DNA of 64,000 nucleotides from Shigella phage sb2. Position 1 is the stretch's first letter. Every line of letters starts with the position of its first letter. The stretch lies in sequence record PQ666540. One strand, written 5' to 3'. Made by a program: the position numbers and the translations under genes. The notes below the pieces were generated by a model that worked only from the letters and a program-made list of their open reading frames with translations, had not been told where the DNA came from and ran no database searches. Shown piece after piece: positions 7,426-12,213 of the stretch.

Positions 7426-7451
7426 AACAGTTTTCCCCAAGTTACAGGCTC

Positions 7452-7480
7452 ATAATATCTCAATCATGAGCCTGTGTAAA
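7452..7480 (-). promoter_or_regulatory. early promoter/stem-loop cassette upstream of ORF 6895..7425
   Basis: Minus strand TTTACA, 17 nt, TATTAT; inverted repeat CAGGCTCAT/ATGAGCCTG brackets the -10. Confidence 0.55.
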
Positions 7481-7481
7481 C

Positions 7482-7745
7482 TTATTTCATATTATTGAAA
7501 TATTCTTCTGCGATTTCGTCGTTATCGTGGTAAACTTTAGAAGACAGTTTAACATAACCTTCTGCTGTGAACATGTTAATCACAACCTTTACAGTATACC
7601 ACTGTCCGTCTTCATTACCCATTACTGCGTAAGTTTCAAACATCGGATGGTCAGGACCGATAACTTTAATATCATTCACTGTACGACCGAAATCTTCTGA
7701 AACGCATTTCATAAAGAAGTTGAACAGTTCGCCGTAATTATCCAT
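7482..7745 (-). CDS. hypothetical protein (about 87 aa)
   Basis: ORF track 7482..7757 starts on TTG; ATG at 7745 with GGAGAA SD. Confidence 0.5.
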   Translation of the reverse strand: MDNYGELFNFFMKCVSEDFGRTVNDIKVIGPDHPMFETYAVMGNEDGQWYTVKVVINMFTAEGYVKLSSKVYHDNDEIAEEYFNNMK

Positions 7746-7788
7746 TTCATTCTCCAAGTTGTTTTCTGTATCAGTAGTTGATAGTTGT

Positions 7789-7818
7789 ATAGTACCATGG
7801 AAGAACAGGGATGTAAAC
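7789..7818 (-). promoter_or_regulatory. early promoter (GTTTAC ... TACTAT) upstream of ORF 7482..7745
   Basis: Minus strand TTTTCACAAAACG-GTTTAC, 18 nt, TACTAT. Confidence 0.55.
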
Positions 7819-7952
7819 CGTTTTGTGAAAAAATTTTTAAAAAGTTTTAGGGAATTCTGGGGCAGGGAGGGGCAATTAAAAGGTAAGATAATATATTATA
7901 AAGGGTATAAACTAAATGATGCCTAGAGAGGCCCAGAAAGGCCTAGATACCA

Positions 7953-7976
7953 AAAAGCCCTATCATTTAGATAGGG
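7953..7976 (-). terminator. intrinsic terminator after IP-like gene 7985..8548
   Basis: Minus strand CCCUAUC-UAAAU-GAUAGGG followed by CUUUUU. Confidence 0.65.
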
Positions 7977-7984
7977 ATTTAAAA

Positions 7985-8548
7985 TTATTTATCTAGTTTA
8001 GTTATTATAGCTTCTGCAGCAGCTTTTAGCTTAGATGCGGTGTTAATACGATTTTTAATTTCAGTATACGCATCGCCAAGAACATCAAGGCTATCAGAAT
8101 AAACACTTACACTATTGCGTTCGCTATTTGAAATAGAACCTTTAGTTTTACGATCAAAATCGGTGTACACGTCTTGAAGATCGCGGGCTGCCTTCTTTGC
8201 ATCATCCAATGCATCAAGAGCTTTATTCAAAGCATTAACGTATTTTTTAGTGTCGAACATATTCTTAGAAATTTTAACAGGTGCACGTTCAGGAGTAGCT
8301 AATACAGATTTAGGAACCTGAGCGCCAGATGCCAATTTCTTAGAAATTTTGAAAAATGCTTTATTGAATTTATTTTCTTGACTCATTGTAAAAGAACTAT
8401 TATCGATGTTGTACATTTCAATAGCTTTAGCTTTCCACTTAAGAAAATCGCCGCGGTCTTTTGGGTCCAATTGGAAGAATACTTTAGTAAGATCTGCTTC
8501 AGATGGTAATTTTGCTGCTTCGGTTAAAAATTCGGCATAGGTTTTCAT
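7985..8548 (-). CDS. internal-protein-like capsid-targeted protein (187 aa)
   Basis: N-terminus MKTYAEFLTEAAK (CTS with LTE site); flanked by terminator hairpins. Confidence 0.7.
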   Translation of the reverse strand: MKTYAEFLTEAAKLPSEADLTKVFFQLDPKDRGDFLKWKAKAIEMYNIDNSSFTMSQENKFNKAFFKISKKLASGAQVPKSVLATPERAPVKISKNMFDTKKYVNALNKALDALDDAKKAARDLQDVYTDFDRKTKGSISNSERNSVSVYSDSLDVLGDAYTEIKNRINTASKLKAAAEAIITKLDK

Positions 8549-8638
8549 TTAAAATCCTTGAAATAATCTATCGGTTGGTTATTAATTATTTATTACTTTG
8601 TTATTATCCGTAACAGCGTTATCCGAGTGATTCAAACT

Positions 8639-8664
8639 AAAAAGCCCCAACCTTTTGGTCGAGG
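8639..8664 (-). terminator. intrinsic terminator after IP-like gene 8674..9147
   Basis: Minus strand CCUCGACC-AAAA-GGUUGGGG followed by CUUUUU. Confidence 0.65.
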
Positions 8665-8673
8665 TTAAGAATG

Positions 8674-9147
8674 TTATTTGATTTGTTTAGCAGACCAAAT
8701 GCGGTCTTTAATAATTTTTTGGATGTCTTCAACATACTCAAGAGAGTGAACATGTGGATTATCTTTGAAACTATAAGCACGGGCTAGCTTTTGGCCTTCG
8801 GTTTTGATTACTAAAAGCTCTTTAAGAATAGCTTCATATTTAGAGATAATTCCTTTAACAATATTTTTTTCTTGTGCAGCTTTAGGATCTGCTTTAGGAG
8901 CAGGTTTACCCGAAGCCTTTGCAAAAGCAGCACCAGTAGCAACTAAACTTTTCCAGGCCATACTAACTGCATTTCCCGTAAATCCTTCTGCTTTCATGTC
9001 GCGAGCAAATTGGAATCGTGATTCGTCAGAAGCATCTTTATAGGAATATTTACCCGCTGCAATGGCTGCTTTTGCGACAGCTTGAATTTCGGTGCTAGAT
9101 GCTTCATTTAACACCGCTTCATTTAAAAATTGAGCATATGATTTCAT
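8674..9147 (-). CDS. internal-protein-like capsid-targeted protein (157 aa)
   Basis: N-terminus MKSYAQFLNEAVLNE (CTS); late promoter TATAAATA upstream, terminator downstream. Confidence 0.7.
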   Translation of the reverse strand: MKSYAQFLNEAVLNEASSTEIQAVAKAAIAAGKYSYKDASDESRFQFARDMKAEGFTGNAVSMAWKSLVATGAAFAKASGKPAPKADPKAAQEKNIVKGIISKYEAILKELLVIKTEGQKLARAYSFKDNPHVHSLEYVEDIQKIIKDRIWSAKQIK

Positions 9148-10300: not shown

Positions 10301-10373
10301 CTGGGAATAAAGGACTCGAACCTTTGCATCCTGGAATCAAAATCCAGTGCCTTACCAACTTGGCTAATTCCCA
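10301..10373 (-). tRNA. tRNA-Gln (anticodon UUG)
   Basis: Acceptor TGGGAAT/ATTCCCA, anticodon stem CTGGA/TCCAG, loop TTTTGAT, T-loop TTCGAGT. Confidence 0.85.
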
Positions 10374-10470
10374 ATTATTAACAAAGGCTCTCAAACAAGA
10401 ACCCTTGATGATAGAGGGTATTAATCAGTGCGATATGAGTTAATAATAACAAATAATTCTTAAAGCATAT

Positions 10471-10758
10471 TTACCATTTATGATAATACATATTTACGAT
10501 GCATTCAAGATCCAAAGGATTCTTGAAAATATCATATTCAAGAGGACCTTTTTCTGTTTCAATAAAGAAATCAAAATTTACTGTATTAAATTTACGTTCT
10601 TCCTTTACTAATTTAACTTGAGAAGATGAACGGTCAATGTAAACCTTTTCAACTTCAAAATATGTTAAAATGCCATAATCATCAATCAAGGCTTTAGCTG
10701 CTTCTTGATCATATTTATATCCATTTTCAATGGATGATACTTTCGCATAAAGAATCAT
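10471..10758 (-). CDS. hypothetical protein (95 aa)
   Basis: ORF track; ATG start. Confidence 0.5.
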   Translation of the reverse strand: MILYAKVSSIENGYKYDQEAAKALIDDYGILTYFEVEKVYIDRSSSQVKLVKEERKFNTVNFDFFIETEKGPLEYDIFKNPLDLECIVNMYYHKW

Positions 10759-10760
10759 TA

Positions 10761-11171
10761 TTAACCTTCATCAACAATAGTATGTGTATTGGCATTTACG
10801 ATTTGCCACCAATCGAAACGATTAGAACCATAATCTGGTTTGTTTTCATTTTCTTTGATAATGTCACGGAGTTCATCTTCTGTTTCAGCATACGCAATCA
10901 AATCAGCATATCCACCGCGAGGATAGTAATTATCGCCTGCGAACAAAAGAAAATTTACTTTAGATTGGTCTACATAATAATGCTCTTTAGGATATTTAGT
11001 TCCTCTCCAATCAGTTACTTCAACATAACGGTAAGAAAATCCATTTTTACTTTCAACCCAACTCCACGCTTCAAAAGGAGTATTAAAAACTCTATCAGGT
11101 ATTAAATTACCTTCAAAATGAGAAGGATTTGCATAATCCCCAGCATAAACATAATATTCGTTAATATTCAT
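10761..11171 (-). CDS. hypothetical protein (136 aa)
   Basis: ORF track; ATG immediately follows the stop of the upstream ORF. Confidence 0.55.
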   Translation of the reverse strand: MNINEYYVYAGDYANPSHFEGNLIPDRVFNTPFEAWSWVESKNGFSYRYVEVTDWRGTKYPKEHYYVDQSKVNFLLFAGDNYYPRGGYADLIAYAETEDELRDIIKENENKPDYGSNRFDWWQIVNANTHTIVDEG

Positions 11172-11357
11172 TTATTCATCTTTAGAAATTTTATCCATAA
11201 CGATAGCGATTAAACCAATTAAAAATGATACTACAAGTGAAAACACATTTTCTGCTGTAGTTAATAATCCGCATATAAATCCAACAAACATTGAAAAACT
11301 AAAAGCAGAAGCAGAAATTGCAATAGCAACATTTCTAATTAATTCACAACGTTTCAT
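11172..11357 (-). CDS. small hydrophobic membrane peptide (61 aa)
   Basis: ORF track; GAGGAG SD; early promoter cassette upstream. Confidence 0.5.
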   Translation of the reverse strand: MKRCELIRNVAIAISASAFSFSMFVGFICGLLTTAENVFSLVVSFLIGLIAIVMDKISKDE

Positions 11358-11385
11358 TTTATTCTCCTCAGTAGTTGATAGGGTA

Positions 11386-11415
11386 ATAGTATCACAACTA
11401 AAACCCTATGTAAAC
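11386..11415 (-). promoter_or_regulatory. early promoter/stem-loop cassette (PeSL-like) upstream of the 61-aa ORF
   Basis: Same 30-bp upstream element as at 11750; -35 GTTTAC, -10 TACTAT; 7-bp inverted repeat ATAGGGT/ACCCTAT brackets the -10. Confidence 0.6.
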
Positions 11416-11427
11416 AACTTTGTGAAA

Positions 11428-11685
11428 TTATTTTAAATCTTCTAATCGTTTCTTCATCTTAGAACCATTTTTAGCAATTTCTCCTGCATCGGAGCATAAT
11501 GCTAAAAGTGCTTTAACTTTAGTTTGGTCTCCTTTAAAAGATGAAGGATTGACCGCAGCAGCAAGTTCTTTAATACGAGAGAAAAGACGCTCAGCTTCAG
11601 CTAAAGCCATTCCAAGCTTTACTTCCATACCGTGGGAAGATTCAGTGATAGTAGTTTTTGTAGCAAACTCTTTGAAAGTTTTCAT
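11428..11685 (-). CDS. internal protein I-like capsid-targeted protein (85 aa)
   Basis: N-terminus MKTFKEFATKTTITE (CTS-like with ITE site); sits where T4 ipI is, next to 57B. Confidence 0.65.
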   Translation of the reverse strand: MKTFKEFATKTTITESSHGMEVKLGMALAEAERLFSRIKELAAAVNPSSFKGDQTKVKALLALCSDAGEIAKNGSKMKKRLEDLK

Positions 11686-11715
11686 TTTATTTTCCTAATT
11701 AATTTTGATGAGGTA

Positions 11716-11755
11716 ATAGTATCACTACCTCATCAGCGTGTAAACAACTTTGTGA
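11716..11755 (-). promoter_or_regulatory. early promoter/stem-loop cassette (PeSL-like) upstream of the ipI-like gene
   Basis: Minus strand: TTTCACAAAGTT-GTTTACA(-35), 17 nt, TG-a-TACTAT(-10); 10-bp inverted repeat TGATGAGGTA/TACCTCATCA brackets the -10. Confidence 0.6.
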
Positions 11756-11757
11756 AA

Positions 11758-12213
11758 TTATTTTAAATCATCTGCCCAATCAAGTTTAAGAGGCTCTTTG
11801 TATTCACGATCTAATACGACCGGAATTTGTACATCACCGCTAAATGATAAGGGCCCAACATTATAAGACAATGTTATATGCGGTGTGTAATCATCAAAAT
11901 CATGTGTAGCACCTAGTGCCCGCGCATACATGTGTCTACAGCGCAGATATTCAGAATCTAGCACAAGTACAAGAGTCGATCCATCTTGTGTTTTCCATAC
12001 TTCTAAATGCCCAGAAGAAGCTACTTCAAAACTTCCGCTTGATGGAACATACGGAACATTTACTCTTGAATAACATATGGTCGAATGAATTTTTTCTCTA
12101 GGAACTGGATTAGGAACACGTAAAGAGCGCTGGAGTTCTTCCAGCGCATCAAGTGTTAATTCTGAAAACTTAGCTGCTACATAAAGACCCGTTGAAAAGT
12201 CTTTAAATTCCAT
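11758..12213 (-). CDS. 57B: gp57B-like conserved protein
   Basis: 151 aa; position between ipI and 57A as in T4. Confidence 0.7.

Follow-up and report, generated by a model that had tools for sequence, protein, structure and literature searches.

PeSL-like elements flank the internal protein (IP) loci of T-even phages. They have T4 early promoters and weaker, AT-rich stems, and have been classed as analogs, not homologs, of PeSLs (Arbiol 2010, PMC2839356). The T-even elements trace to Repoila et al. (1994, EMBO J 13:4181), and later papers (PMC2839356, PMC4122927) describe them in the hyperplastic 57B-ipI-trna.4 locus, with a T4-type early promoter, weak AT-rich variable stems and IP-leader ORFs shuffled between cassettes. 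The PeSLs of RB49 and phi1 run in the order stop codon, AT-rich region, promoter, SD and ATG, and the commonest position of their stem-loop is "between -35 and -10 or overlapping the -10 box" (Arbiol 2010, PMC2839356). They occupy a hyperplastic setting beside ORFs that differ among close relatives, and their crossovers map either to the loop or to the stretch from the -10 box to the ATG. A third group, the PST/T4 PeSLs, has the promoter consensus TTTACW-N17-TAYWAT and is linked to indels and IP differences (Comeau 2014, PMC4122927).

The window, a 64,000-nucleotide stretch of Shigella phage sb2, belongs to the Tequatrovirus group and has 97.7% identity to Shigella phages sb3 and pSs-1. Its cassettes are already known, namely as the PeSL-like elements of T-even phages, described since 1994 (Repoila 1994, as relayed by the later papers). 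They are alike in locus, early promoter, stems and shuffled leader ORFs, and, against the 1994 elements as the later papers present them, nothing substantive differs; the window's alleles are an Ip5-type 85-aa gene and not ipI. The cassettes also share the order, stem-loop position, setting and crossover sites of the RB49/phi1 PeSLs, but the RB49 promoters are near-perfect TTGACA/TATAAT with G/C-rich stems (GGGG...CCCC), whereas the window has a GTTTAC -35 and AT-rich stems. With the PST/T4 PeSLs they have in common the consensus, the T-even lineage and the link to indels and IP differences; a figure legend in Comeau 2014 places stems just upstream of the promoter, whereas stems in the window bracket the -10 box.

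We read the cassettes, with a probability of roughly 0.85, as sigma-70-dependent T4-type early promoters in the nonessential 57B-trna.4 and e.8-e.6 regions that serve as exchange linkers. Their promoter activity is predicted from the consensus match and from T4 orthology. The features concerned are as follows.

11705-11773, minus strand: cassette 1, between 57B and the 85-aa IP gene, with promoter motif, repeat family and hairpin (z -4.4)
11428-11685, minus strand: 85-aa internal head protein gene of the "Ip5" type (phrog_3499), annotated Ip5 in phage ime09
11375-11443, minus strand: cassette 2, between the 85-aa IP gene and trna.4, with -35 at 11410-11415, -10 at 11386-11391 and hairpin at 11378-11409
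7943-9228, minus strand: module absent from T4 with two paralogous IP-like genes, of 157 aa (8674-9147) and 187 aa (7985-8548), both phrog_2280
7778-7846, minus strand: e.8 early promoter, with TTTCACAAAACGGTTTAC at 7813-7830 and -10 TACTAT at 7789-7794
7438-7481, minus strand: cassette between e.8 and the 176/181-aa ORF, with -35 GTTTAC at 7476-7481, -10 TATTAT at 7452-7457 and hairpin at 7444-7475
6895-7425, minus strand: 176-aa ORF (181 aa from a TTG start), phrog_6869, in place of T4 e.7
6869-6922, minus strand: e.6 early promoter of the form TTTACA-17-TATAAT, carrying a TG, in agreement with the consensus at 11 of 12 positions (6894-6922)
3399-3427, minus strand: early promoter that follows gene e and whose -10 TAGTAT is bracketed by a weak hairpin

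The promoter motif is far more frequent than expected by chance. Scanning the 64 kb with GTTTAC-N(15-19)-TAYTAT returned four sites, all on the minus strand with a spacing of 17 or 18 (7452-7481, 7789-7818, 11386-11415 and 11716-11745), against 0.28 expected, and a count of four was reached in none of 100 shuffles. As sigma-70 hexamers each reads TTTACA-17 nt-TACTAT or TATTAT, and all four fit the PST/T4 PeSL consensus (Comeau 2014). The minus strand of the 64 kb has eight such promoter sites, seven of them in the first 12 kb. Beyond 7441-11760 there are the e.6 promoter, the promoter before denV (3399-3427) and further hits at 296-324 and 59910-59938. The one at 3399-3427 directly precedes denV here, and its T4 ortholog precedes ipIII.

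The first-pass annotation had counted at least four minus-strand sites with a common upstream element. The four GTTTAC sites with TACTAT or TATTAT stand, but the upstream element is found at three only: TTTCACAAA-NNN-GTTTAC occurs exactly at 7813-7830, 11410-11427 and 11740-11757, so that the spacer is 3 nt and not the 2 nt first given. The fourth site (7452-7481) lacks TTTCACAAA and has GTTTAC alone, directly 3' of the e.8 stop codon. Two sites do share an identical stretch, as had been noted, but it is 31 and not 30 nt long, and its second copy lies at 11739-11769 rather than starting at 11750; this 31-mer, GATTTAAAATAATTTCACAAAGTTGTTTACA, with its other copy at 11409-11439, contains the DLK-stop codons of 57B and of the 85-aa IP gene. 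It is part of a 69-nt repeat family (7778-7846, 11375-11443 and 11705-11773), whose two copies near 11 kb are 83% identical.

Cassette 1 is the ortholog of the T4 57B/ipI intergenic region. It contains the 57B stop codon, the AT-rich TTTCACAAA stretch, -35 GTTTAC (11740-11745), -10 TACTAT (11716-11721) and the hairpin (11706-11735), followed by an SD and the ATG (11685). Read from the sequence, stop codons lie 0-16 nt 5' of GTTTAC in the cassettes, and the SD and ATG 25-45 nt past the -10 box. The match to PeSL cassettes proposed by the first-pass annotation is borne out, since the promoter, the AT-rich region with stop codon, SD and ATG, and junctions in hyperplastic intergenic regions are all found, with a stem-loop in three of the four sites.

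T4 has cassettes at the same junctions, nearly base for base: 57B/ipI, ipI/trna.4, upstream of e.8, and e.8/e.7. In a comparison that covered T4 and about 45 related loci, the junctions of gene gain, loss and replacement map inside cassettes. Between 57B and trna.4 the gap can be as short as 83 nt, without any gene, or as long as 1667 nt, filled by five IP-type ORFs. In the window this slot, which is ipI in T4, holds the 85-aa IP gene, and 11434-11650 has no T4 homology; the breakpoints of cassette 2 are at 11375/11398/11433.

Three phages with 100% identical 57B (the window, L003 and L034) display individual exchanges at this locus. The gene order is 57B, IP85, IP81, trna.4 in L003; 57B, IP85, trna.4 in the window; and 57B, IP81, trna.4 in L034. 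Cassette 2 of the window is a chimera that exactly matches L003 cassette 2 in its 5' part and L003 cassette 3 in its 3' part, with the crossover within GTGATACTATTACCCTATCAA. Cassette 1 of L034 matches L003 cassette 1 in its 5' part and L003 cassette 2 in its 3' part, and the switch is inside the shared 31/32-mer. Comparison of these junctions shows the cassette-to-cassette exchange step.

The e.7 position shows a second such event. Two successive cassettes hold the junctions of its swap or deletion, each time in the interval from the -10 box to the SD: at 7430-7452 in the cassette after e.8 and at 6869-6899 in the e.6 promoter, which forms the distal breakpoint and whose -35 falls within the final codons of the 176/181-aa ORF. 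This ORF is missing in two relatives (L040 and L046), and e.7 takes its place in T4 and two others (L039 and L041). The breakpoints relative to T4 and relatives are within cassettes both for this replacement or deletion and for the replacement at the ipI locus.

It is possible, but unlikely, that these are ordinary conserved early promoters that do not promote exchange, that the hairpins are unrelated, and that breakpoints coincide with the promoters only since other recombinants are inviable or unexpressed. The sequence shared at each mapped crossover is short (21-32 nt), hairpins are missing from the e.8 and e.6 promoters and yet e.6 is a junction, and further junctions in the same region lie in terminators or tRNA-region sequence, all of which would suit that explanation. 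However, the chimeric cassettes are exact splices in shared sequence, the hallmark of homologous exchange as opposed to selection acting on random joins, and the repeat reaches into the final codons of upstream ORFs. Circles from PeSL-PeSL exchange have also been detected in RB49 and phi1 (Arbiol 2010, PMC2839356). That junctions lie in intergenic cassettes could still be due in part to which recombinants are viable, and not to a preference for crossing over there.

The module with the 157-aa and 187-aa genes is a different case. These genes (7985-9147) form an insertion with the rnaC terminator on one side and the e.8 region on the other, a place where T4 has no gene. The module junctions lie in a terminator hairpin present in three direct copies (7943-7982, 8630-8669 and 9189-9228); a GC-rich hairpin of this one repeat family, with a T-run, follows each gene. 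For the 157-aa gene the late promoter, TATAAATA, is exact and lies at 9188-9195; for the 187-aa gene there is a match of 7 of 8 only. Early-promoter cassettes were considered as the bounds of the two genes and rejected, the bounds being terminator repeats and late promoters. The e.8 cassette, about 100 nt downstream of the module, is intact, T4-orthologous and not a junction, and the window is collinear with T4 over 7430-7976. The suggestion that PeSL cassettes explain why IP-like genes are placed otherwise than in T4 therefore fails, and the proposed agreement between synteny breakpoints and cassettes holds for the ipI locus and the e.7 position but not for this insertion.

The IP leaders read from the ORFs are MKTFKEFATKTTITE (85 aa), MKSYAQFLNE (157 aa), MKTYAEFLTE (187 aa) and MKTYQEFITE (ORF 2474-2947), all of the T4 type MKTYxEFIxE. 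The T4 leader carries an (L/I)-x-E site at which the prohead protease (T4 gp21) cleaves. Alignment to T4 IPIII is limited to the leader. The 157-aa and 187-aa proteins are annotated only as hypothetical, in 164 phage records. Their genes resemble the T4 prohead-core IP genes, which have terminator-plus-late-promoter units around them, in the leader MK(T/S)YxxFLxE, the late promoter and the terminator hairpin; unlike those genes, they sit between rnaC and e.8. IP genes are confined to two loci according to Arbiol 2010 (PMC2839356). That the rnaC-e.8 interval is a third IP locus, moving via terminator/late-promoter linkers, is conceivable but improbable.

Three cassettes have a hairpin around the -10 box. 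Those at 11706-11735 (-17.4 kcal/mol) and 7444-7475 (-22.7 kcal/mol, z -5.9) each have 10 perfect pairs, or 13 with G-U, and that at 11378-11409 has 7 + 4 pairs (-16.9 kcal/mol, z -3.7); equally good folding occurs in at most 1 of 200 shuffles. Folding against shuffles detects no hairpin at the e.8 (z +0.4) or e.6 (z +1.2) promoter. The inverted repeats first noted around the -10 are thus confirmed at three sites, but the e.8 promoter has none. Because these two promoters, at or near variable sites, lack a hairpin, the hairpin is dispensable for exchange.

The stems differ in sequence while pairing is preserved, as had been claimed. The window, T4 and 46 related loci gave 76 distinct cassette cores, of which 47 have z below -2; unrelated stems occur, such as AGGTCTATAG/CTATAGACCT, GAGGACA/TGTCCTC and GAGAGCA/TGCTCTC. 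The ipI-locus hairpin has two-sided changes in 4 pairs (observed score reached by 0 of 500 shuffles) and the e.8/e.7 hairpin in 2 pairs (12 of 500), in small samples of 11 and 8 mutually related sequences. These alignments indicate that the stems of the cassette hairpins covary. All three hairpins lack a downstream T-run, and a terminator scan of the window called none of them.

The inverted repeats might instead act in DNA, as a cruciform that exposes the -10 box or is cut by a nuclease such as T4 endonuclease VII, starting recombination, or as binding sites for a dimeric regulator. We consider this very improbable, although both arms, judged from their positions, cannot be in the cassette's own transcript, the hairpins have no U-tract after them, and the sense strand has no consistent advantage in folding energy. 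Sense and antisense folding are about equal over the 76 cores (Wilcoxon p = 0.09), and because both strands fold about equally well, RNA-level and DNA-level function are inseparable from folding energies. Pairing is kept while stem sequences differ completely between cassettes, which speaks against a binding site for a sequence-specific protein. Several variants in the T4-like subset pair as G-T wobbles on the sense strand but would be A-C mismatches on the other, and in two cassettes (L003_c3 and L033_c1) the sense strand is more stable by about 4-7 kcal/mol, which favours RNA.

Three cassettes (L026_3803, L019_4175 and L019_3844) have mismatched arms, as expected from crossovers within the shared -10 core. 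Since core crossovers create such cassettes, the arms around the invariant core GTGATACTAT might act as a test of pairing by which recent exchanges are marked or penalised, or else form a DNA-extruded structure cut by a junction-resolving nuclease to start exchange; both ideas seem doubtful.

If the cassettes are promoter linkers, each would provide its own transcription and translation start for one small ORF. The upstream stop codon lies in an A/T-rich, UP-element-like stretch, followed by -35 GTTTAC, a 17-nt spacer, -10 TAYTAT, a short unstructured leader, the SD and the ATG. In three of the four cassettes the inverted repeat puts the -10 box in or beside the loop; its 3' arm ends at about the predicted start site, so the cassette's own transcript would be free of the hairpin, which could form only in read-through RNA from upstream or in unwound DNA. 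Most likely the hairpin attenuates or insulates read-through transcription, which is the published view and what we infer here. The cassettes are paralogous and have 20-70 nt of near-identity in common, so phage homologous recombination can cross over between them, within a genome or between co-infecting relatives. Whole promoter-plus-ORF units are thereby deleted, inserted or replaced with neighbouring genes undisturbed.

The cassettes raise no new question here. They confirm the published model in one more Tequatrovirus, with base-level junctions from natural variants. For annotation, the repeats can be taken as promoters and the ORFs between them as exchangeable accessory genes. In that model, short promoter cassettes are the linkers by which T4-like phages swap small accessory genes, including injected anti-defence internal proteins.

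The gene order on the minus strand follows T4:

Minus-strand order, first part: gene 1, 57A, 57B, the 85-aa internal-protein (IP) gene, trna.4, trna.3, trna.2
Minus-strand order, second part: ten tRNA genes, rnaD, rnaC, an IP-like gene of 157 aa, an IP-like gene of 187 aa
Minus-strand order, third part: e.8, a 176/181-aa ORF, e.6

More than 1000 Tequatrovirus records match 7000-12500, and the Shigella phages sb3 and pSs-1 have 97.7% identity to the window over this region. Early promoters lie between the small ORFs, often with a hairpin around the -10 box, and form the cassettes considered here. 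The pattern GTTTAC-N(15-19)-TAYTAT has four matches in the 64 kb, where 0.28 are expected by chance, and all are on the minus strand:

7452-7481, minus strand, GTTTAC/TAYTAT site
7789-7818, minus strand, GTTTAC/TAYTAT site
11386-11415, minus strand, GTTTAC/TAYTAT site, in cassette 2 (85-aa IP gene/trna.4)
11716-11745, minus strand, GTTTAC/TAYTAT site, in cassette 1 (57B/85-aa IP gene)

The first-pass annotation had at least four sites sharing TTTCACAAA at a 2-nt spacing from GTTTAC. The promoter pattern does stand at four sites, but an exact TTTCACAAA-NNN-GTTTAC, with a 3-nt spacer, occurs at only three, 7452-7481 being the one that lacks it. The identical 30-mer with DLK-stop that it reported proves to be an exact 31-mer at 11409-11439 and 11739-11769, the second copy having been misplaced, and takes in the stop codon of each upstream gene together with the three codons before it. 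A 69-nt repeat family has copies near 11.4 kb and 11.7 kb and one at e.8. The window cassettes and their T4 counterparts fit TTTACW-N17-TAYWAT, the early-promoter consensus for PST/T4 (Comeau 2014, PMC4122927), and of its eight minus-strand sites in the whole window seven lie before 12 kb, in the early nonessential region. A literature search found no published set of T4 transcription start-site maps, and the T4 GenBank and RefSeq records have no promoter features at this region.

Inverted repeats had been claimed to bracket the -10 box at three sites, and folding confirms them:

11700-11760, folded region with hairpin around the -10 box, -17.4 kcal/mol, z -4.4
11370-11430, folded region with hairpin around the -10 box, -16.9 kcal/mol, z -3.7
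7435-7495, folded region with hairpin around the -10 box, -22.7 kcal/mol, z -5.9

The e.8 and e.6 promoters give no fold in the same energy test. A chance origin of the motif and hairpins is ruled out by shuffle controls. Among distinct cassette cores, 47 of 76 have z < -2, with stem sequences that differ widely and are all placed around the -10 box. The hairpin of the ipI locus has four pairs changed on both sides (e.g. G-C to A-U), and none of 500 shuffles matches the observed covariation; the e.8/e.7 hairpin has two such pairs, and 12 of 500 shuffles match. The covariation backs pairing at both hairpins and, coming from few, related sequences, is supportive rather than conclusive.

What role the hairpin plays is inferred. 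The predicted start site lies at about the end of its 3' arm, and therefore the cassette's own RNA would lack the hairpin, which only read-through RNA or DNA could form. One G/C-rich stem of the promoter-early stem-loop (PeSL) type showed terminator-like activity in RB49 (Arbiol 2010, PMC2839356). A reading of the cassette hairpins as intrinsic terminators is unsupported: no T-run lies downstream of the three, and a scan called terminators after rnaC and both IP-like genes, not at the cassettes. Sense and antisense folding energies, compared over the 76 cores to tell RNA-level from DNA-level selection, are about equal overall (p = 0.09) and favour neither. An Rfam search (E <= 0.1) over 6500-12500 returned tRNAs and sub-threshold noise only, and no known RNA family.

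PeSLs are defined by a stop codon, an AT-rich region, a promoter, a stem-loop, an SD and an ATG, with the stem most commonly between -35 and -10 or over the -10 box; they are found in hyperplastic regions, where they bring about the exchange of ORFs and the formation of mini-circles (Arbiol 2010, PMC2839356). According to that paper, PeSL-like elements at T-even IP loci had already been seen by Repoila 1994. These T-even elements have T4 early promoters and weaker AT-rich stems, and are analogs, not homologs, of the RB49 PeSLs (Arbiol 2010, PMC2839356); the concept was later extended to PST/T4 (Comeau 2014, PMC4122927). The PeSL identity proposed for the cassettes is thus borne out. The feature exists and the first-pass interpretation is correct in the main; since element and locus both match the published descriptions, this is a correct recognition of something already known.

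T4 carries the same cassettes with near base-for-base identity:

T4 cassette, 57B/ipI
T4 cassette, ipI/trna.4
T4 cassette, upstream of e.8
T4 cassette, e.8/e.7
T4 cassette, e.7/e.6

Homology to T4 by blastn falls into the blocks 5001-6869, 7430-7976, 9193-9587, 9856-11433 and 11651-12806, separated by four gaps:

6870-7429, an unrelated 176-aa ORF in place of T4 e.7
7977-9192, two inserted IP-like genes, whose junctions fall within direct repeats of the rnaC terminator
9588-9855, segB absent and the tRNA set different
11434-11650, the 85-aa gene in place of ipI

Breakpoints against T4 had been expected at the cassettes, and this holds for the e.7 and ipI swaps but not for the IP-like insertion, which is at terminator repeats. 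At 6870-7429 the junctions on both sides fall within successive promoter cassettes, past the -10 box and ahead of the SD. In the ipI replacement, one junction is the 5' edge of cassette 2 and the other is 35 nt inside the ORF, past the shared leader codons. The tRNA cluster (9542-10373, minus strand) has ten genes (Arg, Asn, Tyr, Met, Thr, Ser, Pro, Gly, Leu, Gln) to the eight of T4; segB, a homing endonuclease, and tRNA-Ile are absent, and Asn, Tyr and Met are extra. A close relative, L003, has about 520 nt (5010-5534) inserted just past trna.2, ahead of the tRNA cluster (window 10479-10490).

Exchange is also seen among related IMG/VR loci, 36 at 57B and 10 at e.8. The shortest 57B-trna.4 gap has 83 nt (one cassette, no gene) and the longest 1667 nt (five ORFs), and nearly all ORFs in this gap start with the leader MKTYxEF. 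Between e.8 and e.6 there is e.7, a relative of the 176-aa ORF or no gene, and between rnaC and e.8 there are zero to two IP-like genes. All three outcomes of cassette exchange are represented by three genomes whose 57B is 100% identical (IP85 being the 85-aa gene of the window and IP81 another IP ORF at the ipI locus):

L003: 57B, IP85, IP81, trna.4
Window: 57B, IP85, trna.4
L034: 57B, IP81, trna.4

Base by base, cassette 2 of the window equals L003 cassette 2 as far as GTGATACTATTACCCTATCAA and L003 cassette 3 thereafter, and L034 cassette 1 equals L003 cassette 1 as far as the 31/32-mer and L003 cassette 2 thereafter. Against six further relatives, junctions lie inside cassettes at 11375/11398, 11665/11398, 7438/6898, 7430/6871 and 7452/6869, and inside terminator repeats at 8636/8001. 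Three cassettes at related loci (L026 3803, L019 4175 and L019 3844) join the 5' arm of one type to the 3' arm of another, giving a broken stem, as expected after crossover in the shared -10 core.

The DLK-stop in common with 57B could mean that the end of 57B was recently copied. This reading is weakened by a divergent homologue of the 85-aa protein (L015) that also ends EDLK, and several unrelated IP ORFs end LK-stop at the same A-rich cassette edge. The LK-stop (YTAAAATAA) ends 57B, IP85, a 90-aa family and 58- and 69-aa ORFs, unrelated to each other, in L005-L016 and the window, where its positions at the ipI locus are 11428-11439 and 11758-11769. It thus appears that whichever gene lies upstream takes its last codons from the 5' edge of the cassette.

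The second IP locus (2400-3930, minus strand) is rearranged, from e, ipIII, ipII, denV in T4 to e, denV and one IP gene in the window:

2474-2947, minus strand, 157-aa IP gene, phrog_3155

The promoter ahead of ipIII in T4 is directly ahead of denV in the window. The SD and leader-codon block common to IP genes is 47-60 nt, and 2916-2975 matches the upstream regions of T4 ipII and ipIII. The denV (endonuclease V) homologue (2969-3385, minus strand) contains an in-frame TGA immediately after the codon for residue 110, past which 27 codons still align to the T4 DenV C-terminus (RLDEKI...WYKYYGK); a pseudogene, read-through or a sequencing error may each account for this. Within this tail sits the late promoter TATAAATA (2982-2989) of the next gene.

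The cassettes had also been offered as the explanation for IP-like genes where T4, with no gene between rnaC and e.8, has none. This does not hold, as the region is not bounded by early-promoter cassettes:

7985-9147, minus strand, paralogous 157-aa and 187-aa genes, both phrog_2280 (function unassigned)

Their leaders are MKSYAQFLNE (157 aa) and MKTYAEFLTE (187 aa). Displaced T4 ipII/ipIII are ruled out as their source, the alignment to IPIII being confined to the 10-12-residue leader and both genes falling in phrog_2280. Each IP-like unit ends with a terminator of one repeat family (7943-7982, 8630-8669, 9189-9228), and the switch relative to T4 is within GGGCTTTTT(A/G)GTAT, the foot of the terminator. 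The 157-aa unit opens with an exact late promoter, TATAAATA, at 9188-9195, and the 187-aa unit has only a 7/8 match. The 187-aa protein is in 164 phage records, annotated as hypothetical in all. The rnaC-e.8 interval looks like a third IP locus. IP genes have been described as confined to two loci (Arbiol 2010, PMC2839356), whereas the IP-like genes of this interval would be outside both.
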